IMG/VR virus record: IMGVR_UViG_3300023171_000008
Location: 1-64,000 of that record
Reading direction: 5' to 3' (one strand)
DNA length: 64,000 nt
Source of the DNA: a virus
A program made the translations under genes and the position numbers. Positions 11,342-27,735 of the stretch are shown here, piece after piece. How positions within the stretch are numbered: position 1 is the stretch's first letter; each line of letters opens with the position of its first letter. Below the pieces are notes generated by a model that worked only from the letters and a program-made list of their open reading frames with translations, was not told where the DNA came from and did not search any database.

Positions 11342-11652
11342 ATAGAGAATCAGTAGAATTATCTGAACATTATTTAAGATCTTTACTTGATGAAGATTAT
11401 GAAGGATATATTGAAGATGAAGAATTTGAATATGATTTTGTTTCTGATGAAATAGATAATTACGATTTGGATAAATCATATGAAGACCATGAAGTAATTA
11501 TTAAAAGAAATCTAGATAATAAATATTTTAAATTTGATTATTCAAGTTCCTCTTATCATGATTTATTTTCAGATGGAATGGGATGGGAAGGATTTCCTAA
11601 AAAAGTATATGAAGTATTTCCTAAAACAATAACAAAAGTAATATATGAATAA
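11338..11652 (+). CDS. Acidic hypothetical protein
   Basis: 104-aa D/E-rich ORF ending EVFPKTITKVIYE. Confidence 0.6.
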   Translation: MNRESVELSEHYLRSLLDEDYEGYIEDEEFEYDFVSDEIDNYDLDKSYEDHEVIIKRNLDNKYFKFDYSSSSYHDLFSDGMGWEGFPKKVYEVFPKTITKVIYE

Positions 11653-11917
11653 ATATACAATTAACAAAGTTGATTTTGGTGATATATTTAATTATGCTAA
11701 AGAAAAATTTGGTATTGAATGGAATCCTGCTAACGATATGTTTTTTCATGGTAGTTTAGAATATAAATCATACAATGAATATGATTTAGGAGAACCTTTA
11801 GAATATATAGAAGATAAACCTTATGAAGAATTATCTATTACAGATAAAGGGTATTATATAATTAATCAATTTATGATTGATAATAATGTAGATAGTATAT
11901 TTATAGATAATAATTAA
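11645..11917 (+). CDS. Hypothetical protein
   Basis: 90-aa ORF. Confidence 0.6.
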   Translation: MNKYTINKVDFGDIFNYAKEKFGIEWNPANDMFFHGSLEYKSYNEYDLGEPLEYIEDKPYEELSITDKGYYIINQFMIDNNVDSIFIDNN

Positions 11918-11926
11918 AAATAATAT

Positions 11927-12148
11927 ATGAAAAATATAAATATTAAAAGTACTGTAATTAAAAATATACAGTATGATGAAGTTCGTAAAGATCTTAAAGT
12001 TAATTTTAATTCAGGTAAAGAATATATTTATACACCTGTATCTAATGAATTCTTTAATAAATTAAATAAATCTACAAGTAAAGGTAAATTCTTTAATGAA
12101 AATATTAGAGATAATCAAGCATTAACTTGTTTAAAATTGATTAAATAA
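11927..12148 (+). CDS. KTSC domain protein
   Basis: STVIKNIQYD...LKVNFNSGKEYIY..V....F......SKGKFFNENIR. Confidence 0.85.
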   Translation: MKNINIKSTVIKNIQYDEVRKDLKVNFNSGKEYIYTPVSNEFFNKLNKSTSKGKFFNENIRDNQALTCLKLIK

Positions 12149-12504
12149 TGTTAGGAGAAATAAAAAAACTAAATGAACAAAAAGAAGAATTAAAATCCAA
12201 ACTTAGATTGTATGTTAAGGATAAAACAATTTCTTTAGACAATCGTTGGAACTGTTTTATAGAATCTAAATTAGGAATTAATAGTCCTTACATTGAAAGA
12301 TTTGATTGTAAAGTAGGTAAAGAATACTTAAATACAAGAGAACAACGATATGAAACTCATGATGTTCAAGATATTATGGATTGGTTAGAAGATTTAGAGT
12401 TAGATGAAGAATTATCTACTTATAATATAAATAAAGAAGATATTATAGAATTTCAAGAAAAAGTATTAGATAAATTTATTTTCTCTTATAAATTTGACTG
12501 GTAA
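12148..12504 (+). CDS. Hypothetical protein
   Basis: 118-aa ORF, last gene of the + arm. Confidence 0.6.
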   Translation: MLGEIKKLNEQKEELKSKLRLYVKDKTISLDNRWNCFIESKLGINSPYIERFDCKVGKEYLNTREQRYETHDVQDIMDWLEDLELDEELSTYNINKEDIIEFQEKVLDKFIFSYKFDW

Positions 12505-12522
12505 TGAATATTAATTAAATGC

Positions 12523-12571
12523 AAAAAGCCACATACGACCAATTAAGGTTATATGTGGCTTTAATTTTTTT
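12523..12571. terminator. Bidirectional intrinsic terminator between convergent arms
   Basis: AAAGCCACATAcGACC-aattaa-GGTTaTATGTGGCTTT flanked by A- and T-tracts. Confidence 0.8.
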
Positions 12572-12583
12572 AAGACCCTAAAG

Positions 12584-15500
12584 TTACTTCCCGAACGAAC
12601 TATTAAGTCCATTATATAACTCTTGTGAAGTTACATCTAATTTACTTACTATTGGAAATAATTTTTCATATGCTCTGACTATTTTTAAATCACCTTTACG
12701 TTTACCAGATTCATATTCATCATTCCAATTCCAAGGTGTAACTGTTTGACTAATTACATCCATAGATTGTTCTATAATTCTTAATGACGGTATTGGAGAT
12801 TTAGTAATTTTAGTTGCTTCACGTGGATCTCTAAACTGTGCTAATTCTGATTCTAATCGTCTTGATAAGAATGCAACTGACCATAGATAACTATCATCAT
12901 CGTCTCCAGCAGCTCCTGCAGCAAGTAATCCTATCAGAGGTAATATTGCTCCAGTAATAGATAATTCTACAACAGAACGTCTTATATTACCTTTCTGAGT
13001 ATCTGTAAGTTCATTCCAGTTCTGTCTTAGTATATCATACTTAAGTTGTTTTAATGCAGGATAAACTCCATTACGTAAAAATCGTATAGCTGATACATAA
13101 TAACCTTCCTCATAGTCTTGTAATGATGCTGAGTAGAATTTATCATCTTCATCTAATTGATCATACGATTTAAATGCTTTAGATATACCTCTATATCTTG
13201 CATAAGCTTGCGGTATTAAATATCTTCTAAACATTAACATCATTTTACCCCACCAATGACGATATGCTTCAGGTTGAAGATTACTATCATAGTTACCCAT
13301 TGTATCAAATAACTTTTTCTTTACAAATAATAATATTTGAGATTTACCACCTTCATTTATTTTTGTAGTATAATTCTTATCTGAATAAACAACTTTTTTA
13401 TCTAATTCTAAATAGCCTTGATCATTCTTAGATAACATATCTAATATAGAAGCAGCTTTATCTTGACTAGTTACATTACCATTTTTATCAATATAGTTAT
13501 TAGATTTATCCATTACTTTAATAGAATCTAATGTAGCCATTACCATTACAGATTGTAAATAATGTTCACCACCTTCATGCATAAATTGTAATGAACCAAA
13601 ATCAGCACTAGTCTTAGCAACAGTATTTCTAATAAACTCTTGTTGCTTAACTGTAAATCCACCAAAAGTATCAAACATTTGATTAACTTGATTTACAAAT
13701 GATTCTTTAATAGGTTTACCATAATCAGACATTATATTAGGTATATCTGAATTATACTTTTTATGAGCTTTAAGTATAGCTCCTTTGGTTAAATGATTAC
13801 CTGCTACTTTTTCTAAGAATATTTGTGCTTGACCATTTAGTAAGTTAGCTGCTGCAGAAAATTTATTTAATGATAATCCTACAGAAGCAGTCCATCCATT
13901 AGCAGTTGAAATAAGTTTATTAACATCTACTCCAGCAATAGTACCATAATTAATATGAAATATATCATAAAGATTCTTATCTATCATATTAGTAATCATC
14001 TTATATTCATTAGATTGAATACCCCTTTGAGTAGCATATTTCTCTCTAGTAGTAAATATGTTTAATATTGGAATACCTGAACCTTTTTGAGTTAAATAAT
14101 ATTCTTTATTTTTAGCAATATTTTTAATAGCTTCAACTTTTAATTGAATAGATTGTTTTTCACTAAAATTAATACCATTAATACGTTCTAATCTCATTAT
14201 AGTAAACAAATCTAATGATTGTTGAGAAGGACTTAAATCACCTCTATAATGTACTTTTAAGAAATTAACTGGATCACCTTTACTATCTAATCTCTTTTCT
14301 TCATAACCAATATCATCAGGTCTAATAGTAAATAAATCATCTTTAATATCTTTAAATATTTCACTACTATTACCTTCTAATATCCTTTCTAAATAACTAT
14401 TAGTTACAGATGGTAGATTATAAAATGTTATTCCTCTAAATGACTCTAATAAACTATTTCTACCTAATGTTTCAGTATTAACTGTAGTAATAATATCTTT
14501 AAACTTAGTTAATATAGATTGTTCAGTAGCAGATAATGTACCTTTATTCTTCCATTTATCTATAGGAATATAACCATTTAAAGTTTTAGTAGTGTTAGCT
14601 CTTAACCATTTAGTTAAAGCATCTTTAGATTTCTTAAATTCTTCAGAGTTTTTACCATGTTTGGCTAAATTATCATTCTTAGTGTTATTTAATTTACGAT
14701 ATTCTTCTCTAAATTTAATTGAATAGTCACCTTTTAAATAAGCTTTACCAGTACTATCATAGTCTAATATATTTTTATACAATTCAGATGGTTTTTTATT
14801 ACCTTTTTCCTTAATTAATTTATTAAACAATTCTTTTAATTCAAAATCAGACTGTCTAGTACGTTCAATAGTTCGTTCTCTAGCTTCTGTAAACATTTGC
14901 ATAGTTATTTGAACTAACCTACTATTATTATTAATACCATCTAAGAATGTAACTGCTGCAGAAGATATATCTGTACCAATACCGTCTAGTAAATTATTCA
15001 CATATGCGTTAACATCATCTGTAATAGTATCTTTATATGTAGTATTCATTTCATTAGATACCCATTCAGATTGTGATTTATTAGTAATAGCTCTATCTTT
15101 ATACTCCTTATTAAGTTTATTTCTCCAATCAGTAGCTACTTGAGGTGTATATTTAATATCAGATAATTCTTTACGAAGTATTTGTGATAGTTTAGCGTTA
15201 AAATCTTCTTCTAATACAGAATGTTTACCAGATGCTTCAGTTATATCATCCTTAATAATCTTAATATCTTCTATACCTATTTCAGCTATTTTATCATCTT
15301 CTAATGAAGATATAAGTTTACGTACATCATCTATTAAATCATATGATGATAAATAACTTTTATACAATTCAATAGTTTCTAAACCATCTCCTTTAGTTAA
15401 ATCTGTAGTAGCTAATCTGTTAGATAAATCTGTAACTGTTTTAACCATTGATTTAACATATATTGAAATACCTTTCCATTGATTAATCTTATCAACTTTA

Positions 15501-16600
15501 GCAATTTCACCAATTAATTCTTGTATATGTTTCTCAAATGCTTCACCTTTAGATTGATTATTCTTTTTAAAAGTTTTACTACGTTTAAGTAATTGATCTA
15601 AATTATCTTTAGCTTTATTTAATGTATAAGTTAATCTATCTTCAACAGATTCTATTTTAGGCTTAAGTGGTTTCTCTTTACTAAATATGTTAGATTGACC
15701 TTTAACACCTTTAAATGAAATTTGATCTGATTCTACAACTTTAACTATTTCATTAATTAATTTAGTATATTCATTATTTTTAGCTAAACCAAATAATCTA
15801 CGTACAGCATCTATTAATTTATTCCAAAATGATTTATCTATTAATTCTACTTCTCTTTGAAAATCTACATTAGAATATAATTCTGCTACAAATTCCATTG
15901 GATTAGTAAAACCATATGATAAATTACCAAAACTATCAGGAGATGCTAATTGAACAAACTTATCGAAGTTATCATTAATTAATTTATTAAATTCAACTTC
16001 TTCAAATGTAGTAGGATTAATTAAAGCTTTACCTGATTGACTATGTGCTACTTCATGTAGAAATACACTAATCATAGTTTCAGGAGTTTCTGTAGATAAT
16101 ATATTTCTATCAATCTGGATACTATTGTTAGTATCAGTCCATTGCATTAAAGCAGTAGAACTATCTAATTTATTAACAAATTGAATACTTACTCCAGATT
16201 TACCAACTAAATTTCTAGCTTTAGATATTAATTGTTTAGTATTATCACTTAAAGCATCATAATTATTAACTATATTATTTAATATTTCATCAGTGGTAAT
16301 TTTACCTTGCTTATTACCAAATAATACAAAACTATTAATTGCTCTATAATCTACTTCTTTAACTACATCTTGGTTATCTTCTTCAAACCATTCTAATTGT
16401 TCAGATTTATTAGAAGTTAATCTATTAAAATCAATAGAAGTGTTAGTATCTTGATTAACATCTTCAACTGTAGGAAATTTATCTAAACCATTAATATCTT
16501 GATATTTACTAATTCGCATTTCTAATAAGAGTGAAGGAAGCTTAGTAGCTTCCAACAACTCTATGAATTCATTACTCGCTGTATTGATACAGTTCTTCAT
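12584..16600 (-). CDS. Large virion cargo/ejection protein with N-terminal zincin-like metallopeptidase domain
   Basis: FLHEVAH and downstream EFVAE; hydrophobic segment near the C-terminus; position after the vRNAP gene as in crAss-like phages. Confidence 0.75.
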   Translation of the reverse strand: MKNCINTASNEFIELLEATKLPSLLLEMRISKYQDINGLDKFPTVEDVNQDTNTSIDFNRLTSNKSEQLEWFEEDNQDVVKEVDYRAINSFVLFGNKQGKITTDEILNNIVNNYDALSDNTKQLISKARNLVGKSGVSIQFVNKLDSSTALMQWTDTNNSIQIDRNILSTETPETMISVFLHEVAHSQSGKALINPTTFEEVEFNKLINDNFDKFVQLASPDSFGNLSYGFTNPMEFVAELYSNVDFQREVELIDKSFWNKLIDAVRRLFGLAKNNEYTKLINEIVKVVESDQISFKGVKGQSNIFSKEKPLKPKIESVEDRLTYTLNKAKDNLDQLLKRSKTFKKNNQSKGEAFEKHIQELIGEIAKVDKINQWKGISIYVKSMVKTVTDLSNRLATTDLTKGDGLETIELYKSYLSSYDLIDDVRKLISSLEDDKIAEIGIEDIKIIKDDITEASGKHSVLEEDFNAKLSQILRKELSDIKYTPQVATDWRNKLNKEYKDRAITNKSQSEWVSNEMNTTYKDTITDDVNAYVNNLLDGIGTDISSAAVTFLDGINNNSRLVQITMQMFTEARERTIERTRQSDFELKELFNKLIKEKGNKKPSELYKNILDYDSTGKAYLKGDYSIKFREEYRKLNNTKNDNLAKHGKNSEEFKKSKDALTKWLRANTTKTLNGYIPIDKWKNKGTLSATEQSILTKFKDIITTVNTETLGRNSLLESFRGITFYNLPSVTNSYLERILEGNSSEIFKDIKDDLFTIRPDDIGYEEKRLDSKGDPVNFLKVHYRGDLSPSQQSLDLFTIMRLERINGINFSEKQSIQLKVEAIKNIAKNKEYYLTQKGSGIPILNIFTTREKYATQRGIQSNEYKMITNMIDKNLYDIFHINYGTIAGVDVNKLISTANGWTASVGLSLNKFSAAANLLNGQAQIFLEKVAGNHLTKGAILKAHKKYNSDIPNIMSDYGKPIKESFVNQVNQMFDTFGGFTVKQQEFIRNTVAKTSADFGSLQFMHEGGEHYLQSVMVMATLDSIKVMDKSNNYIDKNGNVTSQDKAASILDMLSKNDQGYLELDKKVVYSDKNYTTKINEGGKSQILLFVKKKLFDTMGNYDSNLQPEAYRHWWGKMMLMFRRYLIPQAYARYRGISKAFKSYDQLDEDDKFYSASLQDYEEGYYVSAIRFLRNGVYPALKQLKYDILRQNWNELTDTQKGNIRRSVVELSITGAILPLIGLLAAGAAGDDDDSYLWSVAFLSRRLESELAQFRDPREATKITKSPIPSLRIIEQSMDVISQTVTPWNWNDEYESGKRKGDLKIVRAYEKLFPIVSKLDVTSQELYNGLNSSFGK

Positions 16601-19600
16601 TTATTTACATTTTTTAATATAGTCTTCGATATATTCTTGACCAAATTCATTTAACATACTATTATATAGTTCTTCAGTAATACCATTAGATTCAAAAAGT
16701 TCTTTATTTTGTTCAAATAAACTAAACTCTTCAGTTACATCATTATTATAATCTTGTCTATAGAAATGATCTCTAGGATATACTACAGTATTATTTAACT
16801 CATTATAGTAGTTAGTATCAATTAAATTAGTTATATCGTTAGAAGCTTTTAAAATAAGTCCTTCAGTATTGTAATTAACTATTTTATTACCTTTTCTATC
16901 TCTAATATTAAGAGGTTTAATATCAACTAATTCACCATTAATATTAGGAGTAAATCTACTATAAATTGCTTTTAACTGATTATCATAACCTAATAATTTA
17001 TAATAAACATCTGTAGTTAAACCACTACTAGGATCTTCTAATTGTCTAACAGTAAAATATCCAGCTTTACCTTTATCATTTAATTTAAATCCTTTGTTAA
17101 GATTATTAAATGAAGATTTAGTATCTATCTTATAAGGTAAAGTAATTTTAACTAATCGTTTATTAAATATTTCAGACATAAATATTTGATCTATAAAATT
17201 ATCAACATTACTATTCTGATTAGTATATTCATTAGATTGATCAATTATAAATCTATTAATCTTATTCTGTTGAAACCATTGATAAGGTATATAAGTATAA
17301 AATTGACTTATATTCATTGCAAATCCTGAAGTAAAATAACTATACTTAATAAGATCATTTGCAAACTCTGGTTCATCAATTAATAAATCAGACCATGAAT
17401 TAGTTAAATTCTCTTCAAATTCTATAGATTTCTTTCTATTACTTAATCCTACATATTCTAACTTACCTTCTCCAGGTCTAACAGATAGTTCATCTATTAT
17501 ACTGTACAAACCTTTATTAGACTCTTTAAAAGTTTTAAATTGTTTAGGAAATTGATTTAATAGAGTTCTACGTTCTTCAATAGATATTTGAAATGGTTGA
17601 AATCCTGACATTGTATAACTATAGAAATGTTTTTCTAATGTGGTACCAAGATTTGGATCAATTAATATATCACCATTAATACTATGAGATATTTCGTTAA
17701 ATGTACTTTGAACTACTGGATTAGCAGATAAGAATAATTTAGGATTAGCTTGTACTATATCTAAAGTCTTTAATATAACATTATTATAGTATTTACTAAA
17801 CATACTTTCAGTACCATTAGGATTACTAAACTTAGATTTAAATCCTGTTATAATATTACCTTTAAAATCTTCATCATAAGCAGATTGATCTTCTTTAAAC
17901 ATTATACTGTCAACTAAGTTTTTAGCAATTTGTAACTGTGTTACATCTTTACCCATACCATTAACCATAAACTTAGATGCGTCAATGTTAGTTTTAATAG
18001 CTTTAGAGGCATTTTGATACCTTAAGAAGTCATTAAATACTTTAGCTTGAAATTCTACATTAGGATTAACTATATTCTTACGTATAGTCTCTAAACTATT
18101 ATTCTCTATAATGTTATATAAAGATGGAAAGAATATTTGTGAATGTGTGTTAGTTAATAATTCAGTAACTTGTCTAATTTGATTAACTTCTGCAGGAGAT
18201 AATGTTATACCACCTAAACCTAAAGTATTAAGAATATTAGATTGTGTAAAATTGTTATTACCTTTTTTAACATCTTTAGCTCTATCTTGTTTAATATCTT
18301 TAGTAGTGAATAGTTTATCGTATAATACATTTAAATCAATGTATTTATCTCTTAAACTTAAACTACTAGTTAATTGTTCTTTTACATACTCTTTTCTAAA
18401 CTGATCTCTAGTATCTAATGACTGTAAAGATGATTGTTCATATTGTTCAGTAAAAGTAATATATTTAGATATGATAGGTTGAGCTAAGAATGCGTTAACA
18501 TAAAATGGATGTACACCTTTACGTAATAATAAATTACCTGTATTAGTAGTCATACTTACCCAGTTACCTTCAGTAATATAAGGATCTTTAGCTATATCAA
18601 CAAACGCATTTAGAATTGCTGATAATGAATGAGATATTTTAATTTTTTTTAGATCCTGAACTTCATCGTCACTTATATTAAGTTGTTTTTGATAATATTT
18701 TAAATCTTTATCATCTAATGATTCAGAATATTCTTCATCTAAATTAATATTACCTTTATCAATATTAAAGTTAGTGATACCTAAATCTCCTAATGTACCT
18801 AATACATAATCAATTAAAGCATTAGCTTCTTGACCAACACCCGCTTTACCAGCTAAGAAACTATATTTAACATCTATATCTGCTAATGGATCAAATAAAC
18901 TTAAGTTAGATATAGGTTTCTGTTTGAATATACTTCTAATATCATTCTTAATATGATCAAAGTCAATAGGAGTCATTACTTCCTTAATAACTTGTTCATT
19001 AGTAAGAACTGCTTTATATAATTCAATTAATCTATTTTGTAAAGCACCAATACTTTGTTCACTATCAGATACTTCATTATTGTAACTATCGTATACAAGT
19101 TTACCATCTTCTAAATGATAGGTTGGAAACATCATATACATTTTATCAATATCGAAGTCACTACCTGTCTTAGTAGTAATACCTGTATAGGCTACAACTG
19201 TATCTCCATTTTCTTCTGGAAGTATACCTACTATTTCTAAAGCATCATTAGACGAAAGTCCTTGATTAGGAATACGATAACCTATTATATTCTCTTGTAT
19301 TTTCCTATCAATTATTTCATCAAACAATTGTTGTGGTGTATATTTTCTATAATCTGGAATATATTTAGCTATAAATGATCCTGATAACAATATACCACCT
19401 GGTCTAACTATTCTTTTACCGTTTTCAGATAATATAAATTCACCATTGTCATCTTTAAGAAATTGTGGTTCATGTGTAGTAGATAATGCTCTAGGACTCC
19501 ATATAACACCTTGTGATTCAGCATTATCTTTAGTAAGACCAAAGTTACTCATTTGAATAAATGATCCACCATTAGTCTTAATTTTAAGTACACGTTTATT

Positions 19601-22600
19601 AACTATAGATGCAAATATATTCTGAAGTTTAGATTGAGCTTGTGGTATTCCATAAATAGAAGTTTCAGATTCTAAAGCATTAATTACATTAGTTGAACCA
19701 CCTCGTTCTCTTAATTCATCAGCAATAGTTGAATAAAATCTTTCTACATTAGTAATAATATTATTATTATCAACTCCAAATTCTTTATTAAGTTTAGATA
19801 AACCTCTATTAGATAATTCTCCAACAGTATTAGCTATTTGTTCAAGTACTTGATCTCCAGTAATTTCATTATTATCTAAATTAAATAATTCATTACGATG
19901 AAATGCTAATCCTTGAAATATATTCTTTTGTATTTGACTACCTACTTCAGTTTCTTTAAATGTTTTAACTGGTAAATCTTGTTGTAACTTCCAACCATTA
20001 GAAGGAATATTCATTACATTAAATTTAACATTATCTAAAACATTACCATTATCATCATGAACTTTACTAGGTTGTACAGATCCAACTTTAATAGCATCAA
20101 ATGTAACTAATTCATCTATAGACTGATTAATCATTTGATTATAAATCTTTTCAAGACCATTACCTTTACGTAATCTTGGAGATAATACTGCTTGAGAATA
20201 CTTAAGAAATACTGGTTTACCATTAACTAATTGAAAATACACACCTTTAACTGGTGGTGCAACTTTCTTAAGTTCTTCAACAGTAAATGGTTCTGTATTA
20301 TTACCTAATAGCTTCTGATAAGATGATTCATAAATATTGTTCCATTTACCTAATGATTGAAATATATTTTTCCATCGTTGTGGAGTTATCCAAGCTTGAG
20401 CATCTGCAGAATTAATCTTCTTATAACTGTCAGCTACATCTTTACCAACTAATTCAGTTAATTCATCTAAAAATGGTGTAGCTATTTCAATACTTTCAGT
20501 TACAGCAATATTATAATCTTTATTAATATCGTTAAGTCGTAGTTGTAAACCATCTGTATATGTAGCAGGAACACGTTTTTTATAATCAACTCCGTTCTTA
20601 TAGTAAGCAATATCACCACTAAACATTTTAGAATATTCAACATGAGATATAATAGAATTAATATAAAAGTCAGAAGCTGCTTTTAATGCATTATCTGTTT
20701 GATAATTATTCCATATTTTACTATCTAATGTTTTATTAATGTATTCACCATTAATCAATTCAAAAACTCCTTGATTAACTAAATTATCTAAAGTACCTTT
20801 AATATTATTAGACAGTTGATTATTAATATACTTTAATAAAGCATTCTTAATCTTAGGATTGTTTAAATCACTATAAGAAGTTTCATTAGTTAAATTACCA
20901 TTATTATCTCTATTATATATAGAAGTAATTAAAGTCTTTTCTTCAATAGTTAAATCCTTTAATGAGTTATCTATTTGATCGAATGATAATGATGGAAATA
21001 TTTGAGATTTAAATGCATGACCTTGACCTAAATGATAATAAACTGATAATTTATCTTCATTGGTAGGGTCGTTCATAAACTCTCTTTCAAACTTCATTCG
21101 TTTATATTCTGAATTAAAGTATTCAAATATAACTTCTGATGCAGATTGATTAATAATTATATTATTATTTTCATCACGTCTAGCATTAGTTAAGTGATTT
21201 CTAGCAATATATAATTCATATTGTGTACCTTTATCTGCAGGAGTAGTAGTTCTATAATATGATTTACTATTTTTTATAAAACCTAATACTTTATTAACTG
21301 TATCAGATATATAGGTAGCTTTATCTACAGATTTATTATCTAAACCTTCATTAGCATTTTCATCTTCTTGTACAACATTAAATGAAGCTAATTCTAATTC
21401 ATTAATACGACGTTTAGATTCTTCAATACGTTCTTGTTCAGCTAGTGTTAGATCTATGTATTCATTAATTTGATAAGTATCTCCTAATGCTAATAAATAC
21501 TTCATCCAGTCAGAACCTTGATTATATTTAGAAATCTCATAATGATTTAATAATAAATTTCTATTCTTCTGCCATGATTTAATTTTACTAGATAAATATG
21601 ATGGATATGAATATACCCACTTTTGCTTACCTGCTGTAAATACTGATGAATCTGAACCTTCAGATATATAAAATGCTTCAGCTCTAGCTATATCTCTAAA
21701 TATAGATTGATCATTTAATATGTTATCATAATTAGTATTCTTATTATTAATAACATTATCAATGAAATAACCTAAATCTGTAATTGTATTATTTAATATT
21801 TTATTAGATAGTTCATTATCTTGATTAATTAATTCTAAGTTATCTAAGTAATGTTCAAATCCTTTAGAAGTAGTTTCAATACCTAGTTTTCTAAGTAAAG
21901 TTACTAATGCAGGAATATCTTTATTAAGTTTAATTTTAGTTAAATCATTTTTAAATCCTTTAATAATATCTCTATTACTAGGATTAATAATAATATTACC
22001 GTCAACTAATTCAGTATATCTAACTTTAAAATTATTATTCCATTGATTAAATACTTCAGTTTCTCTAGAACCTACATTAGCTACATTTAATACGTCATGA
22101 TTAACATTATTAACTGTTTCTTTACGTGTAATAATACTACCATCTGGTAACGTTTCTGCAGGTAATGTATTAACTTTAATTACATTCTTAGTAATTGAAG
22201 TATTAAATACATTTTTATCTAAATTAAATGCTTGTACAAATTCAGCTTTAATATTATTAGATAAATCTGGATTAGATAATAATCTATATAATTCTTTAAA
22301 ATAAGGTTTCTTATTAATTAATTTACTTACTTCTTCTTTATAAATATTAAATAAATCTTCTTGACCATCAATATCTAAAGCAATTTTACTATTTAAATTA
22401 TTTAATAAAGTTACATATATTTCATCAAAGTCTACATATACAACATCATTTAAAAATCTATCTTTTTCAGAAGTATCTTCAATTAATGACAATCTAAGTT
22501 TTACATTAGCAGATATATTATCTTTACTACTTCTTTCAAATGACGAATTCCCAAATCCAGGATCTTTCTCATTCTCAGATATTTCAATATTCTCTAATTC

Positions 22601-23239
22601 AGTATCTTCTAAATTATCATTCTTAAATTCATTAGTAGATATTTTAGATTGTTGTAAATAGTTTTTAACATTAGTTACTAATTCATCTAAGTTATTATTT
22701 AAAGCTTCTTGTAATAATTCAGCCTTATCTTCCCATAAATAATCATCAGTAGCATTAAAAGTATTTATTCTTTCATTAACTTTATCTATAACAGATTGTT
22801 TAATAGATCCAGTAGTATTACTTAAATCTATATTTTCAAAATCTATGTTAAGATTATTTTTAATAAAACTATTTGCTAATACTTTAGTTAATAACTTTAT
22901 TTCTGAAAACTTAAATAATGAATTTAAACTTTTACTATTAAATATTAGATACTCTTTATTCTTATATTTATCTATATAATAGTAATCACCTTTATTATCT
23001 TTAAATAATTTAGGTTCACCATTATCTTCAATACGAGAAGTATCTTTATTATAACTATAATCAGATTCTTTAATATCAGAATTATAATCTTCTTGCCAAT
23101 TACCAAAATATTTAATAAATTCTTGTGAATTAAAATGAGAATGAAGAGCTGTTGCTAACTCTTCATCTCCATTATAAGCTTCTAATATAGTATTAAATAA
23201 ATTAGATTGACTTCCATTAACTATTACTTTACATGCCAT
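16601..23239 (-). CDS. Virion DNA-dependent RNA polymerase (phi14:2 gp66-like)
   Basis: GYRIPNQG...GSDFDIDK catalytic motif (about 19145-19159); ADAQAW, KYS, VDIAKDP; 2212 aa. Confidence 0.92.
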   Translation of the reverse strand: MACKVIVNGSQSNLFNTILEAYNGDEELATALHSHFNSQEFIKYFGNWQEDYNSDIKESDYSYNKDTSRIEDNGEPKLFKDNKGDYYYIDKYKNKEYLIFNSKSLNSLFKFSEIKLLTKVLANSFIKNNLNIDFENIDLSNTTGSIKQSVIDKVNERINTFNATDDYLWEDKAELLQEALNNNLDELVTNVKNYLQQSKISTNEFKNDNLEDTELENIEISENEKDPGFGNSSFERSSKDNISANVKLRLSLIEDTSEKDRFLNDVVYVDFDEIYVTLLNNLNSKIALDIDGQEDLFNIYKEEVSKLINKKPYFKELYRLLSNPDLSNNIKAEFVQAFNLDKNVFNTSITKNVIKVNTLPAETLPDGSIITRKETVNNVNHDVLNVANVGSRETEVFNQWNNNFKVRYTELVDGNIIINPSNRDIIKGFKNDLTKIKLNKDIPALVTLLRKLGIETTSKGFEHYLDNLELINQDNELSNKILNNTITDLGYFIDNVINNKNTNYDNILNDQSIFRDIARAEAFYISEGSDSSVFTAGKQKWVYSYPSYLSSKIKSWQKNRNLLLNHYEISKYNQGSDWMKYLLALGDTYQINEYIDLTLAEQERIEESKRRINELELASFNVVQEDENANEGLDNKSVDKATYISDTVNKVLGFIKNSKSYYRTTTPADKGTQYELYIARNHLTNARRDENNNIIINQSASEVIFEYFNSEYKRMKFEREFMNDPTNEDKLSVYYHLGQGHAFKSQIFPSLSFDQIDNSLKDLTIEEKTLITSIYNRDNNGNLTNETSYSDLNNPKIKNALLKYINNQLSNNIKGTLDNLVNQGVFELINGEYINKTLDSKIWNNYQTDNALKAASDFYINSIISHVEYSKMFSGDIAYYKNGVDYKKRVPATYTDGLQLRLNDINKDYNIAVTESIEIATPFLDELTELVGKDVADSYKKINSADAQAWITPQRWKNIFQSLGKWNNIYESSYQKLLGNNTEPFTVEELKKVAPPVKGVYFQLVNGKPVFLKYSQAVLSPRLRKGNGLEKIYNQMINQSIDELVTFDAIKVGSVQPSKVHDDNGNVLDNVKFNVMNIPSNGWKLQQDLPVKTFKETEVGSQIQKNIFQGLAFHRNELFNLDNNEITGDQVLEQIANTVGELSNRGLSKLNKEFGVDNNNIITNVERFYSTIADELRERGGSTNVINALESETSIYGIPQAQSKLQNIFASIVNKRVLKIKTNGGSFIQMSNFGLTKDNAESQGVIWSPRALSTTHEPQFLKDDNGEFILSENGKRIVRPGGILLSGSFIAKYIPDYRKYTPQQLFDEIIDRKIQENIIGYRIPNQGLSSNDALEIVGILPEENGDTVVAYTGITTKTGSDFDIDKMYMMFPTYHLEDGKLVYDSYNNEVSDSEQSIGALQNRLIELYKAVLTNEQVIKEVMTPIDFDHIKNDIRSIFKQKPISNLSLFDPLADIDVKYSFLAGKAGVGQEANALIDYVLGTLGDLGITNFNIDKGNINLDEEYSESLDDKDLKYYQKQLNISDDEVQDLKKIKISHSLSAILNAFVDIAKDPYITEGNWVSMTTNTGNLLLRKGVHPFYVNAFLAQPIISKYITFTEQYEQSSLQSLDTRDQFRKEYVKEQLTSSLSLRDKYIDLNVLYDKLFTTKDIKQDRAKDVKKGNNNFTQSNILNTLGLGGITLSPAEVNQIRQVTELLTNTHSQIFFPSLYNIIENNSLETIRKNIVNPNVEFQAKVFNDFLRYQNASKAIKTNIDASKFMVNGMGKDVTQLQIAKNLVDSIMFKEDQSAYDEDFKGNIITGFKSKFSNPNGTESMFSKYYNNVILKTLDIVQANPKLFLSANPVVQSTFNEISHSINGDILIDPNLGTTLEKHFYSYTMSGFQPFQISIEERRTLLNQFPKQFKTFKESNKGLYSIIDELSVRPGEGKLEYVGLSNRKKSIEFEENLTNSWSDLLIDEPEFANDLIKYSYFTSGFAMNISQFYTYIPYQWFQQNKINRFIIDQSNEYTNQNSNVDNFIDQIFMSEIFNKRLVKITLPYKIDTKSSFNNLNKGFKLNDKGKAGYFTVRQLEDPSSGLTTDVYYKLLGYDNQLKAIYSRFTPNINGELVDIKPLNIRDRKGNKIVNYNTEGLILKASNDITNLIDTNYYNELNNTVVYPRDHFYRQDYNNDVTEEFSLFEQNKELFESNGITEELYNSMLNEFGQEYIEDYIKKCK

Positions 23240-26200
23240 TATTTACATCGTTTTTCATATTCTGACGGATATGCATTTTTAAATTTATTATAATCACTAA
23301 CTTCATTAGCTTTAAGTTCTTTACCAGACTGCATTCTTTTAATCAATGAAGCTAATCTATCAATATCTTGTTTACGATCTCTAGCATCAGTAGGTACTTC
23401 ATAAACTTCAGATTGAACTTCTTTAACTTGAGTATTTTCCATAGTTCCTTCTATTTCAGACAAAGATACAAAATTATTTTCATTATTCCTATTATTATCA
23501 TTTAAAAATTGAATACCTGTAGATAATGGAATTTCTTCAGTAGTATTAAAATCTAATCCTGTAAAGTTATTTGCAGCTATTTCAGCACCTTGTTCAGATA
23601 TATTTACATTAGCATTAACTCCAGTTTTAATAGCATTTTTTCTATTACTAAACTCTTGTTTATATAATGACTGTTGTTCAGGAGATAAACTATTATATGA
23701 TTCAGTTAAATCATCTATAGTTTTAATCTTAGACAACTTATCTTTAATATTAGAAATAGGTTTAACATTTGATTCTAACGATACTGTAGGATTAAGATAT
23801 ATATTAGTATAACCTTGAAATGTAGGCTCATTAACTACAGCATTAGTGGATAATATTTTATTGTTAACTAAGTATTTTAAATAATCTGCTGAATTAGATT
23901 GAATATTAGTTTTAGTATTATCAGTTTCAGATTTAGGAGATATTTTAACTTGATGTCTTTTTACATTAGTTAAGAAATTAATTATATTATCTTTTTGTAA
24001 ATCTATATTATCTAAATTAGCTACTTGATTACCAAATAATAAACTATTATTTTCAATTCTAATCTGTGATTTAATATTAGTAGTATTACTATAAAGTATT
24101 AAATCTATTATATCAAATAGTTTAACATCTTCTTTAATACCACCAATTATTTCAAGTTCAGAATTAAAATTATCTAATATATTATTACGTAAACTATCGT
24201 TAACTTCTCCAACTGTAGTATTAAATGATTTATTATTAGTTAAAATTTCTTTATGTATATTATAAATTATATCAGCTTCTAAATTATTAATCTTTTTAAT
24301 ATTAAGTTTTAATGGAAATGGTGTACCATTAGCTTGAGGTATCATTAAATATATTTCACCTTTAGCATTCTCCTTACTTCTATCCATATTATTAGTAAAT
24401 GGATTTTTAAATAATTGAGTTTCACCAGTAATAATATTCTGTAATTGACCAAATGCATTAATAACGTAAAGATTTTGTCTAATATAATTTAAATCTTTGA
24501 TTCCGTCTAAATCCATTATGTTATTTTCAGCAGTAGATGATTCTACTTTTAATAAACCTTTATATTGACCTTGTACAGAACCTTTAATATTATCTATAGG
24601 TTGACCTTGTATTAATCTAGATATAATTTCAGTTCTAAGTATTTCAGTGGATGGATCTATTGCGTCATTAACACGTCGAGTTTCAATAGGTGCTTTAACT
24701 TCATCTGTAAACTTAACATTAATAGGTAAGTAATCAAATAATAGTTTTCTATCATTAAAATCATTTCTTTTAAATAATTCTAAAGCTTTATTAACATTAA
24801 TATTATTTCCAGGATTTAAATTAACTTCAAAACCAACTTGTTTACCTGTTTTATCTATAGGAGTTCTTTCATAAGCAACATAATTAGGAAACTGTTCGAT
24901 TATAAAAGATAATGGTTCACCAGTATTCTTATTAGTAGAAATCACTTTAACACCTTTACCATTATCTACATCACCTGTATTGATTGAATTAAGTTCTTCT
25001 ACTGCATTATTAATACCTTCGGTAGGTGTAAGTTCATCTGTAACTTCAGAACCCTCTGTAGAGTCTATATTAGTATAAGTTTTAACTACTTTAGGTTTGT
25101 TTAATTCAGCTTCTTTAGTTAAATTTCTAAAATTATGCCATCTTTCATTAAAGTTTTTCCAATCTTTTTCACCTTCAAATAACACTCCTATTTTAGATAC
25201 AGCTTTTACAGTAACTTCTTTATCTTTTTCCCAGTCTTGTCTTAGACCTTTAAAGTTAGTAAAGTAAATTCCTTTATCACCTTTTCTAGCAGTTTCTAAA
25301 CCTAATACTTCTTGAGCTTCATTAACTACAGGTTGTACTTGAACAGGTTGTTCTTCAAATAAACTATCAAAATTAGATTGTGTTTCAGGATTAATTTGTA
25401 CACCTAATTCTTCATTAATAATCTCTTGACGTTGTGTATCTTCTAAAGCGATTTCTTGTTGTTTAAACTCTTCTTTCTTAGCTTGAACTTGTTGTTTAAC
25501 TACAGGATTAGTTGGTTTAACTTCATTTAATTCTTCAATAGTAGTAGCTTCATTAACTTTAGTTGTTTCATCAGTTACTTTAGTTATATTTTCTGGACTA
25601 TTATCTTCTCTAGTTTTATTATTAACATTGACATAATTCTTAAAAGCTTTATTAATTTCAGTATTATCCCATATTAAATTATTAACTAAATCGTCAGTTT
25701 CTTTTAAATCACTTTTAGATTGATTAATTTGACTATTTATAAGTTTAATACGAGGATCTTGTTCATATCTATATTTAAATATATCTTCTGTAGCATTAGA
25801 ATCAACTATATCTTCTGTACGAACGTTTTCATTATTTCTTAATTCTTTTAATAAATTATCTTTAGTACTATTTAATTCCTGAAGTTTATTACGTTGAGTA
25901 TATTCATCACCTTTTAAATTAATATAAGTGTCAGCTAATCTATTATAAAATGAAGTTTTATCATCTTCAGTACCAATATTATCTAATTTAATTAACGAAT
26001 TACTAAAGTCTTTATAACTTTCATATTGTTTCTGCATATAAGATGCTTTATCCACAATATCTTTAACTAAAGTTTTAGAATCTTCATCAGTAGCTAATTC
26101 TTCAGTTTGTCTAGATTGTTCTAAATATTGTTTTAAAGCGTCAATTCCCATTTCACCTTGAGTAATAAATGGAGTAATTAATTGATTAATAGCTTGATCT

Positions 26201-27735
26201 TTAAATTGATTTACAGTTTCAGTATCACCATTAGCTACAGCTTCATCAAATAATTGACTTTGTCTTTCAGTAAATTCTAATGCTTCAGCTACTTGTTTAA
26301 CTTTAACTGGGTCATAAGTTGGTTTACCTTCATCATCTAATATAATAGAACCTTGTTCGTTTCTAATATAAGGATCAGTTTCATATATATTATTAAAAGT
26401 ATTTACTTTACCTTGAGTAAAACTAATTAAGTTATTAGTAGAATTTCGATTAGTTATATCAGATTTAGCACCTTGATAAGCAGACATTCCACCACCTAAT
26501 ATTCCACCCAAGAATATAGCTTTCTGACCTTCAGTTGAACTAACCATATCTAAATAAGAATTTGCTAATTCACCAACATTAAAATCATCAGTTATATTAT
26601 CAGTTAATTCATTTTGTTTAGCACCTTTACTAAACATAGTTTCAACTGTAGATTGTAAACCTTCTTCAAAGAAACCTTCAGAACCAGTTGCTAAAGCTAC
26701 ATTAGAAGCTCTGTTAAGAACTTTCTTACCTATTGAAGGTGTAAGTTCAGTCACTAATGATTTAGCTCCTGCTTTACCCCACAACATCTTAGACTGTATT
26801 GCATTTGGACCAAGTAGTATAGCAACGTTAGATAGAAATATATCTCTACCAAGTTTACCTTTCTGTTGTATTAAAGTATCATATTGTTCTGTATCAATAG
26901 TCCCAGCTTTCAATTGTTCATCTAAATCTTTCTGAAAGTTATCCATAGCTGAACCTGCTTCTGAACCTGATTCAAATAAGGTATTAGCTAACGTTGTAGC
27001 TGTTAAATCAATTCCTTCAGCAGTTATACCTAATTCAGTTAAAGCTTGTGTAGCACCTGCTAATTTAGCTTCTCCATTAATCATAGATAAACCTTTAGCT
27101 GTAGTACCTAATATTTTATTACCTAATCCTAATGATTTTAATGCTGCACCTGGAGCTAACATTGAAGCTATAAATCCAATACCGTCAGCACCTTCTGTAG
27201 CCCAGAAATCTACAGAACTTATATTGTCCCATAGATTTCCTTCGCTTACAGCTTTCTTAACATATACTGGTAATAATTCAGTATTAACATCTTCATTTAA
27301 TTTATTAACAGCTTTAACCCAAGGATTATTGAATGCTGTTTCAAAACCTTGACCGTCTTCAGCAAATGGTGCTGCAATACTACCAACTACAACTCCCGGA
27401 AGTTTAGCTATTTCTGATGTTGCTTTAGTTAATATTCTACCTACTCCAGATAATGATTTACTTTGCCAAGATTGGTTATTAGCTCTAATCTCATTAAATG
27501 GATCACTAGCATTAATATCAGCAAATTGATTTAAATATGGATTAACTCCCTCATTCAAATTATCTTGATTAGAAGTATTAATATCAGCAGTATGTCTTTC
27601 AGTATCAAAAGCATTAGTTGTGGCTAATTTAGTATTAGTAGGAGTTGACCATTGTTTAAATGAATCACTTTCTGCAATGTGATCTAAAAAAGCATCATCA
27701 TAACTTTTAGCTTTATCTTTATTTGGTTGTAACAT
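23239..27735 (-). CDS. Large virion cargo/ejection protein
   Basis: Gly/Ala-rich amphipathic N-terminal region (SEG..EEGLQ, FLGGILGGG); directly upstream of the vRNAP gene. Confidence 0.7.
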   Translation of the reverse strand: MLQPNKDKAKSYDDAFLDHIAESDSFKQWSTPTNTKLATTNAFDTERHTADINTSNQDNLNEGVNPYLNQFADINASDPFNEIRANNQSWQSKSLSGVGRILTKATSEIAKLPGVVVGSIAAPFAEDGQGFETAFNNPWVKAVNKLNEDVNTELLPVYVKKAVSEGNLWDNISSVDFWATEGADGIGFIASMLAPGAALKSLGLGNKILGTTAKGLSMINGEAKLAGATQALTELGITAEGIDLTATTLANTLFESGSEAGSAMDNFQKDLDEQLKAGTIDTEQYDTLIQQKGKLGRDIFLSNVAILLGPNAIQSKMLWGKAGAKSLVTELTPSIGKKVLNRASNVALATGSEGFFEEGLQSTVETMFSKGAKQNELTDNITDDFNVGELANSYLDMVSSTEGQKAIFLGGILGGGMSAYQGAKSDITNRNSTNNLISFTQGKVNTFNNIYETDPYIRNEQGSIILDDEGKPTYDPVKVKQVAEALEFTERQSQLFDEAVANGDTETVNQFKDQAINQLITPFITQGEMGIDALKQYLEQSRQTEELATDEDSKTLVKDIVDKASYMQKQYESYKDFSNSLIKLDNIGTEDDKTSFYNRLADTYINLKGDEYTQRNKLQELNSTKDNLLKELRNNENVRTEDIVDSNATEDIFKYRYEQDPRIKLINSQINQSKSDLKETDDLVNNLIWDNTEINKAFKNYVNVNNKTREDNSPENITKVTDETTKVNEATTIEELNEVKPTNPVVKQQVQAKKEEFKQQEIALEDTQRQEIINEELGVQINPETQSNFDSLFEEQPVQVQPVVNEAQEVLGLETARKGDKGIYFTNFKGLRQDWEKDKEVTVKAVSKIGVLFEGEKDWKNFNERWHNFRNLTKEAELNKPKVVKTYTNIDSTEGSEVTDELTPTEGINNAVEELNSINTGDVDNGKGVKVISTNKNTGEPLSFIIEQFPNYVAYERTPIDKTGKQVGFEVNLNPGNNINVNKALELFKRNDFNDRKLLFDYLPINVKFTDEVKAPIETRRVNDAIDPSTEILRTEIISRLIQGQPIDNIKGSVQGQYKGLLKVESSTAENNIMDLDGIKDLNYIRQNLYVINAFGQLQNIITGETQLFKNPFTNNMDRSKENAKGEIYLMIPQANGTPFPLKLNIKKINNLEADIIYNIHKEILTNNKSFNTTVGEVNDSLRNNILDNFNSELEIIGGIKEDVKLFDIIDLILYSNTTNIKSQIRIENNSLLFGNQVANLDNIDLQKDNIINFLTNVKRHQVKISPKSETDNTKTNIQSNSADYLKYLVNNKILSTNAVVNEPTFQGYTNIYLNPTVSLESNVKPISNIKDKLSKIKTIDDLTESYNSLSPEQQSLYKQEFSNRKNAIKTGVNANVNISEQGAEIAANNFTGLDFNTTEEIPLSTGIQFLNDNNRNNENNFVSLSEIEGTMENTQVKEVQSEVYEVPTDARDRKQDIDRLASLIKRMQSGKELKANEVSDYNKFKNAYPSEYEKRCK
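23461..23492 (-). promoter_or_regulatory. Intragenic Bacteroidota-type promoter upstream of the vRNAP gene
   Basis: ATAGGAA-N17-TATCTTTG on the - strand, about 220 nt before the vRNAP start. Confidence 0.5.

Follow-up and report, generated by a model that had tools for sequence, protein, structure and literature searches.

Crassviruses, more abundant in the human gut than any other phages, have to move polymerase-associated cargo, with a mass of ~700 kDa for each set, through a narrow tail. Here we analyze the cargo block that encodes the virion RNA polymerase in a crAss-like phage, located in the first 64 kb (the window) of the complete 102,557-bp IMG/VR virus record IMGVR_UViG_3300023171_000008. 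The block comprises three consecutive giant open reading frames (ORFs) on the minus strand, with 5048 amino acids (aa) in total, and its cysteines are confined to chain ends that face a neighboring protein. The closest described arrangement is that of the cyanopodophage A4 (Anabaena phage A-4L), where cryo-electron microscopy (cryo-EM) revealed a disulfide between Cys1715 of gp27 and Cys5 of gp26, as well as the docking of the gp27 C-terminal helix onto gp26 (PMC12002296, PNAS 2025). In the A-4L genome, Cys1715 (of 1717 residues) and Cys5 (of 1114 residues) are the only cysteines of their respective proteins. A4 and the window are alike in that consecutive ejection proteins place a lone C-terminal cysteine opposite a lone N-terminal one, and the cysteine-bearing C-terminal helix of gp27 has a predicted counterpart in the polymerase of the window. 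They differ in that A4 has one such junction instead of two, no RNA polymerase in the chain, and a different family membership (Saffermanviridae). The A4 authors treat the bond as a stabilizing detail, neither a conserved rule nor a threading link. Comparison of A4 gp26 and gp27 with all crAss ORFs that reach 400 aa gave no homology (best BLASTP E = 0.85, none with phmmer), and the likeness is therefore one of mechanism, not of family.

Within the crassviruses, gp67-gp66-gp65 of phi14:2 and gp47-gp50-gp49 of crAss001 are orthologous to the three proteins of the window, are encoded at the same position, behind the muzzle gene and the genes of cargo proteins 1 and 2, and display the same cysteine pattern. 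The phi14:2 proteins gp65–gp67 are annotated as virion proteins on the basis of tandem mass spectrometry. gp66 enters the host and transcribes the early genes, and its DFDID motif is numbered 1361–1365 (preprint 10.1101/2020.03.07.982082). In crAss001, gp47, gp49 and gp50 were detected in virions by mass spectrometry, are probably located in the capsid cargo zone, and need partial unfolding for passage through the tail; the virions also contain disulfides between subunits, in the tail as well as at the portal vertex (PMC10172136). Fused polyprotein forms of the block occur in other crassviruses (Yutin et al., as cited in Drobysheva et al.). These forms are identical to the block in domain content and order, but their parts are linked by a peptide bond and have no cysteine pair at the junction, whereas the window has three genes and a cysteine pair at each cut. 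Another relevant system is the ejection operon of the Schitoviridae (N4 gp50–gp52, DEV gp71–gp73), in which cysteine is strongly suppressed and a giant virion RNA polymerase is ejected (PMC11445570); a citation in that paper credits earlier work with the suggestion that this suppression is tied to passage through the periplasm. The Schitoviridae polymerase is one chain of ~3400–3500 aa with essentially zero cysteines, no terminal pairs and a different polymerase fold. It shares with the window proteins a cysteine content far below the proteome average in proteins of the ejected type.

In the window, the ORFs directly upstream of the giant trio match the Pfam families of the muzzle and of cargo proteins 1 and 2, and the middle giant protein is, by its sequence, the gp66-type virion RNA polymerase of the crassvirus block. 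The best protein match is phi14:2 (32% identity), with an orthologous trio that is ~30% identical. A script count located four cysteines in the 5048 residues of the trio: residue 1497 of the upstream protein, residues 3 and 2211 of the polymerase, and residue 4 of the downstream protein. Each lies within 1–4 residues of the end that faces the neighboring protein, and the two outer ends (the N-terminus MLQPNK... of the upstream protein and the C-terminus ...NSSFGK of the downstream protein) have none. Cysteine accounts for 0.08% of the trio, compared to 0.76% of the remaining window ORFs with a length of 100 aa or more, a rate at which ~38 cysteines would be expected in 5048 aa where 4 are observed (P(≤4) = 2e-12). 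For four positions drawn at random, the probability that each facing end would have one of them within 5 residues is about 2e-11. No completely cysteine-free state is thus found in the trio, which has four terminal cysteines on three polypeptides, unlike the single cysteine-free polymerase of the Schitoviridae. The upstream/polymerase junction reads ...CGA TGT AAA TAA TGG CAT GTA AAG..., with the stop codon overlapping the next start (TAATG), and the polymerase/downstream junction reads ...AAA TGT AAA TAA ATG AAG AAC TGT.... A 10-nt string, ATGTAAATAA (Cys-Lys-stop), is common to both junctions (23236–23250 and 16598–16612). An initial annotation of this DNA had arrived at the same number and terminal positions of cysteines, which the script reproduced exactly, and at codon positions (Table 1) that agree with the ORF coordinates and the sequence. 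It had also described the outer ends and the 629- and 525-aa cargo proteins as free of cysteine, as the script count confirms, and the N4 virion RNA polymerase likewise, in agreement with the literature (PMC11445570).

The pattern is real and order-wide. Two scans of IMG/VR yielded ~75 distinct contigs (designated by L numbers) at 27–67% identity; the second scan, with a 3067-aa polymerase query, added almost no further contigs. The contig ORFs were labeled by BLAST to the proteins of the window, unique junctions were counted, and a cysteine within 8 residues of an end was regarded as terminal. Among these relatives, cysteine is present at both facing ends in 51 of 54 upstream-to-polymerase junctions and in all 60 polymerase-to-downstream junctions, such that both members of the pair are found at 111 of the 114 unique junctions. 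The three upstream-to-polymerase exceptions all retain the N-terminal cysteine of the polymerase; in these, the upstream cysteine is 11 or 31 residues away from the end or the upstream ORF appears to be truncated. The free ends never carry one (0/59 upstream-protein N-termini and 0/66 downstream-protein C-termini), and internal cysteines number 26 in about 350,000 aa of the relatives' proteins (0.005–0.01%). Across ~110 junctions, the cysteines are mostly located 0–5 residues from the C-terminus and at positions 2–7 from the N-terminus. The simplest reading of a cysteine pair at both ends of a junction is that the two thiols bond each other. The intergenic gaps at the junctions range from -13 to 6169 nt and in some cases contain inserted cysteine-rich ORFs (L003 and L012), which leave the terminal pair undisturbed; the pattern is therefore independent of gene spacing. 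These inserted ORFs, likely mobile elements, are located between the polymerase and the downstream gene, at L003:16524-17321 (265 aa, 9 cysteines) and L012:16891-22070 (781, 500 and 440 aa).

The named phages follow the same rule. In phi14:2, cysteine occurs in gp67 only at residue 1797 of 1797, in gp66 at residues 3 and 2179 of 2180, and in gp65 at residue 3, with TGC as the codon at one place and TGT at the others. The crAss001 cysteines are residue 2339 of 2341 in gp47, residues 5, 1334 and 2404 of 2412 in gp50, and residue 5 in gp49. The crAss001 block (L095:6119-24723) is not collinear, as gp47 is encoded on the strand opposite to gp50-gp49, and the cysteine pattern still yields the chain order gp47, gp50, gp49. 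The opposite orientation of gp47 rules out a stop/start or translational-coupling motif. In p-crAssphage, the junction pair consists of the cysteines at C-1 of gp45 and N3 of gp44, and the rule is also kept in eight other named crassviruses of the human or macaque gut, consisting of seven Suoliviridae and the Steigviridae phage cr108_1. A separate protein of p-crAssphage, gp47 (L094:2365-4938; 857 aa), which is encoded upstream of its polymerase block, has a single cysteine at residue 856, and the next protein, gp46, has none. The N-terminus of the downstream protein often conforms to M-x-(x)-C-[IP]-N (MICPN, MYKCPN, MSHCIN), from marine contigs to gut Suoliviridae, and this motif is better conserved than the rest of the domain.

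Gene fusions and interrupted genes serve as natural experiments on the pairs. In L045 and L056, the polymerase and the downstream protein are fused into a chain of 3525 aa, in which only the N-terminal cysteine is left, and the pair at the other junction is intact. In L081, all three proteins are fused into 4726 aa with zero cysteines. p-crAssphage gp44 (4070 aa) and the corresponding proteins of the seven Suoliviridae and cr108_1 are without cysteine at the fused ends and keep the pair at the remaining junction; the upstream-plus-polymerase fusions of the Suoliviridae are 4300–4950 aa long. No relic cysteine was found at the fusion points of the fused gut proteins, where the first internal cysteine is well away from the inferred junction. 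In several marine relatives (L002, L019, L034/L035 and L079), a break in the polymerase ORF falls within the DFDID codons, and neither broken end carries a cysteine. The gaps at the breaks are L002:14120-15049, L019:14007-14284, L034 about 11650-12596, and L079:14258-15206. The gaps compared with group I introns (RF00028), those of L002, L019 and L079 among the four unique split loci, all gave matches; the score was 85 bits for L019, and L002 and L079 gave split partial matches below the gathering score. The gaps of L002 and L079 probably carry an inserted ORF. The same split-ORF pattern is observed in cr131_1 and cr108_1, where FDID or YDID opens the second exon. If a group I intron is present at the split, the polymerase protein would be continuous there. 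Since the pair is lost at fusions and absent at apparent splits, it tracks breaks in the polypeptide and not breaks in the gene. The initial annotation had proposed to examine whether the terminal cysteines are conserved and co-vary in the orthologous trio, including cases of fused or split genes. Conservation and co-variation are now seen in phi14:2, crAss001, p-crAssphage, the gut phages and the ~75 contigs, with the pair lost at fused junctions and at the apparent polymerase splits.

Structural models cover both cysteines of the polymerase-to-downstream junction. An AlphaFold2 model of the last 450 aa of the polymerase (predicted local distance difference test, pLDDT, of 91.5) has a helix at segment residues 439–449 and low confidence at 402–410, and Cys2211 is accordingly predicted to lie at the very end of the final helix, with a flexible linker before it. 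In the model of the first 500 aa of the downstream protein (pLDDT 85), Cys4 is located in an N-terminal non-helical segment ahead of a helix at residues 10–19. Co-folding of these two segments with separate alignments gave a score of 0.29, with the mark at 0.32, a value that favors neither binding nor its absence. Lysine is enriched beside the terminal cysteines, with Lys at position -2 in 28 of 49 upstream C-termini compared to a background of 10%, and terminal windows of 12 residues contain no conserved His, Asp or second Cys near the terminal cysteine. The enrichment of lysine and the lack of a second metal ligand are more in keeping with a single reactive thiol than with metal binding.

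Judged from these sequence patterns, the facing cysteines probably form an end-to-end disulfide tether in crassvirus cargo. The best explanation as a whole, to which we give somewhat better than an even chance, is that these inter-chain disulfides would turn the three proteins into one thread that is ejected in order and released by reduction. The pattern itself, its conservation, its co-variation with fusions, its absence at the apparent polymerase splits and its independence of gene adjacency are observations, from which we infer the bond and its timing, the threading role and the reductive release. The C-terminal cysteine of one protein and the N-terminal cysteine of the next would adjoin in the packed cargo, and would be oxidized to an inter-chain disulfide once the virion exits the reducing cytoplasm. 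The three chains would then constitute a near-linear thread of ~5050 residues, in the order 1498-aa protein, polymerase, 1338-aa protein. The extreme terminal position of the cysteines would matter because the joined chains stay effectively linear for a narrow channel; with a bond so close to the ends, only a few residues of double strand would be present at the joint, which could fit the portal and tail channel. A covalent link would hold through partial unfolding, in which a non-covalent contact would be broken, and would preserve both the ejection order and a 1:1:1 stoichiometry. Reduction of the thioredoxin type in the host cytoplasm could then free the individual proteins. Phages with a fused polypeptide would obtain the same link by a peptide bond, with no cysteine at that site.

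Several points weigh against a disulfide thread. Neither an experiment nor a structure demonstrates the bond in a crassvirus, the cryo-EM maps of crAss001 do not resolve the cargo, and the structural atlas of that phage is silent on terminal cysteines, cargo disulfides or links between these proteins (PMC10172136). One cysteine per end does not, by itself, tell whether the link is a disulfide, a metal bridge or some other thiol bond, and spontaneous oxidation is doubtful in the anoxic gut habitat. The A4 disulfide is described as a static pre-ejectosome staple, not as a threading link (PMC12002296). In addition, some relatives depart from the rule: the upstream cysteine is 31 residues from the end in L055 and 11 residues from the end in L064/L071, and in L008 an 871-aa polymerase fragment has Cys3 and is preceded by an ORF that lacks a C-terminal cysteine. 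The gut crassviruses keep the pair, yet tolerate more internal cysteines (20–27 in cr124_1 and cr131_1).

Among other explanations, the disulfides may exist as a purely static staple of the packed cargo, as in a pre-ejectosome, with neither a single thread nor a role in the order of ejection. The sole structural precedent has been read in this way (PMC12002296), and crAss001 stabilizes its tail and portal-vertex proteins by disulfides (PMC10172136). A staple could sit anywhere on the surface, however, and both the strict chain-end position and the exact swap for a peptide bond in the fusions are better explained by linear connectivity; we consider a purely static role unlikely, while giving it real weight. 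A metal ion (Zn, Fe or Cu) could also connect the facing cysteines, as could other thiol chemistry such as a Cys-Lys bridge. The pairing data show only that two thiols belong together, lysine is strongly enriched beside the cysteine, and gut phages live without oxygen, all of which would suit such a link. Nevertheless, each end has only one cysteine, without a conserved His, Asp or further Cys; a metal would be held by a two-ligand site that is weak and would be lost on unfolding, and cryo-EM shows this signature to be a disulfide in A4. The probability of this chemistry is, in our estimate, low. A single four-cysteine zinc site that joins all three proteins was rejected, as fusions remove the pairs separately, junction by junction. 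A different partner for each terminal cysteine is improbable as well, whether another copy of the same protein (N-N and C-C dimers) or an anchor in the capsid, portal or tail. It would be in line with the several copies of each protein that are thought to be packed (six each in the example of Bayfield et al.) and with the lone C-terminal cysteine of p-crAssphage gp47, which has no mate in the next protein. It does not account for the co-presence of the pair in 111 of 114 junctions, its co-loss at fusions with the other junction untouched, or the outer ends, which never carry a cysteine (0/59 and 0/66).

The cysteines might instead be a regulatory or processing signal, either a cysteine switch of the matrix metalloproteinase type acting on a zincin-like domain or a protease site. 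The downstream protein does have an HExxH motif at residue 182, near Cys4, and the Drobysheva et al. preprint proposes cleavage of the fused polyproteins. However, fused forms without the cysteine keep the motif (HEFAH at 2292 in L045, HEVGH at 3551 in L081), a fact that led us to reject cysteine-switch latency, and the upstream-to-polymerase junction of the window has a pair with HExxH in neither protein. A signal of this kind is very improbable. Finally, chance, a mis-called start codon or a nucleotide stop/start motif would have been suggested by ATGTAAATAA, which both junctions of the window share. A chance origin has P of about 1e-11 in the window alone, and the cysteines are kept at 20–30% identity, with TGC and TGT codons, over gaps of widely different length and on opposite strands in crAss001. 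Chance and the nucleotide motif are refuted by these comparative data, and what probability remains for this group of explanations is negligible.

We found no description of terminal cysteines or of a tether in crassvirus cargo in the literature, and the words "cysteine" and "disulfide" do not occur in the gp66 preprint. The initial view that the arrangement had not been described therefore stands for crassviruses and fails more generally, given the gp27-gp26 disulfide of A4 (PNAS 2025) and the known suppression of cysteine in ejection proteins. If the rule holds, it would offer a reason for the extreme purge of cysteine and for the freedom with which the genes of this block fuse and split in evolution. 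It would also offer a route for the delivery of several proteins in a fixed order and ratio, and an annotation rule that separates true protein ends from introns and frameshifts in crass-like genomes. As the signature consists of single residues, the question of cargo delivery becomes simply testable. At its broadest, the proposal is that crassviruses of habitats ranging from sea water to the human gut may inject their polymerase as the middle link of a pseudo-polyprotein of 5000–6000 residues, made after assembly by chain-end disulfides and threaded through the tail as a single strand, with a redox-timed release by the host cytoplasm, and A4 hints that this could be general among podophage ejectosomes. 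We put this extended form forward tentatively, as a possibility with less than an even chance.

Table 1. Coordinates of the cargo block, its cysteine codons and motifs, and the adjacent tail/cargo genes in the window.
Feature	Position	Strand	Evidence and remarks
Upstream giant cargo protein, 1498 aa	23239..27735	-	phi14:2 gp67 orthologue, BLASTP E = 1e-88; sole Cys is residue 1497
Cys1497 codon, upstream protein (C-terminal ...YEKRCK, then stop)	23245..23247	-	ORF and sequence
Virion RNA polymerase, 2212 aa	16601..23239	-	phi14:2 gp66 orthologue; PDB 6VR4, E = 6.6e-229; Cys only at 3 and 2211
Cys3 codon, polymerase (MACK)	23231..23233	-	Cys3 is an invariant column in polymerase alignment A1
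Catalytic DFDID motif, polymerase residues 1361-1365	19145..19159	-	D1361, D1363 and D1365 invariant in alignment A1
Cys2211 codon, polymerase (C-terminal ...YIKKCK, then stop)	16607..16609	-	ORF and sequence; AlphaFold2 C-terminal model
Downstream giant cargo protein, 1338 aa	12584..16600	-	BLASTP gp65 E = 1e-142, crAss001 gp49 E = 1e-32; sole Cys is residue 4
Cys4 codon, downstream protein (MKNC)	16589..16591	-	ORF and sequence; AlphaFold2 N-terminal model
HEVAH (HExxH) zincin-like motif, downstream protein residues 182-186	16043..16057	-	E183 nearly invariant in alignment A3; weak Pfam SprT-like match
Cargo protein 2 homologue, 629 aa	27739..29628	-	Pfam crAss_CARGO2; zero Cys, outside the chain
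Cargo protein 1 homologue, 525 aa	29628..31205	-	Pfam crAss_CARG1; zero Cys, outside the chain
Muzzle protein, 1376 aa	31325..35455	-	Pfam crAss_MUZ, E = 2.5e-212; 6 internal Cys; marks the crassvirus tail/cargo module

At the DNA level, megablast detected no relative of the 15-kb block among GenBank phages, and none of the three giant proteins has a PHROGs family. A Foldseek comparison of the N-terminal model of the downstream protein with the PDB returned only weak matches to zincin peptidases (E about 0.1).

The architecture of L008 (7361-19355) is unusual. A 1943-aa ORF with an internal "...ENCKGG..." at residue 1656 is followed, with an 8-nt overlap, by a 1161-aa ORF of no known family, and then by the 871-aa C-terminal part of the polymerase, which has cysteines at N3 and at its last residue. 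This arrangement may reflect a frameshift, an insertion or a recent fusion. Thioredoxin-like genes are located in the neighboring early/replication module of p-crAssphage (L094:27755-29022) and cr108_1 (L103:27698-27967). The cargo and polymerase genes of six Suoliviridae contigs (L096, L097, L099, L101, L102 and L104) contain 7–70 in-frame stops when translated with table 11, compared to none in the window, and these stops in late genes of gut crassviruses are consistent with stop-codon recoding.

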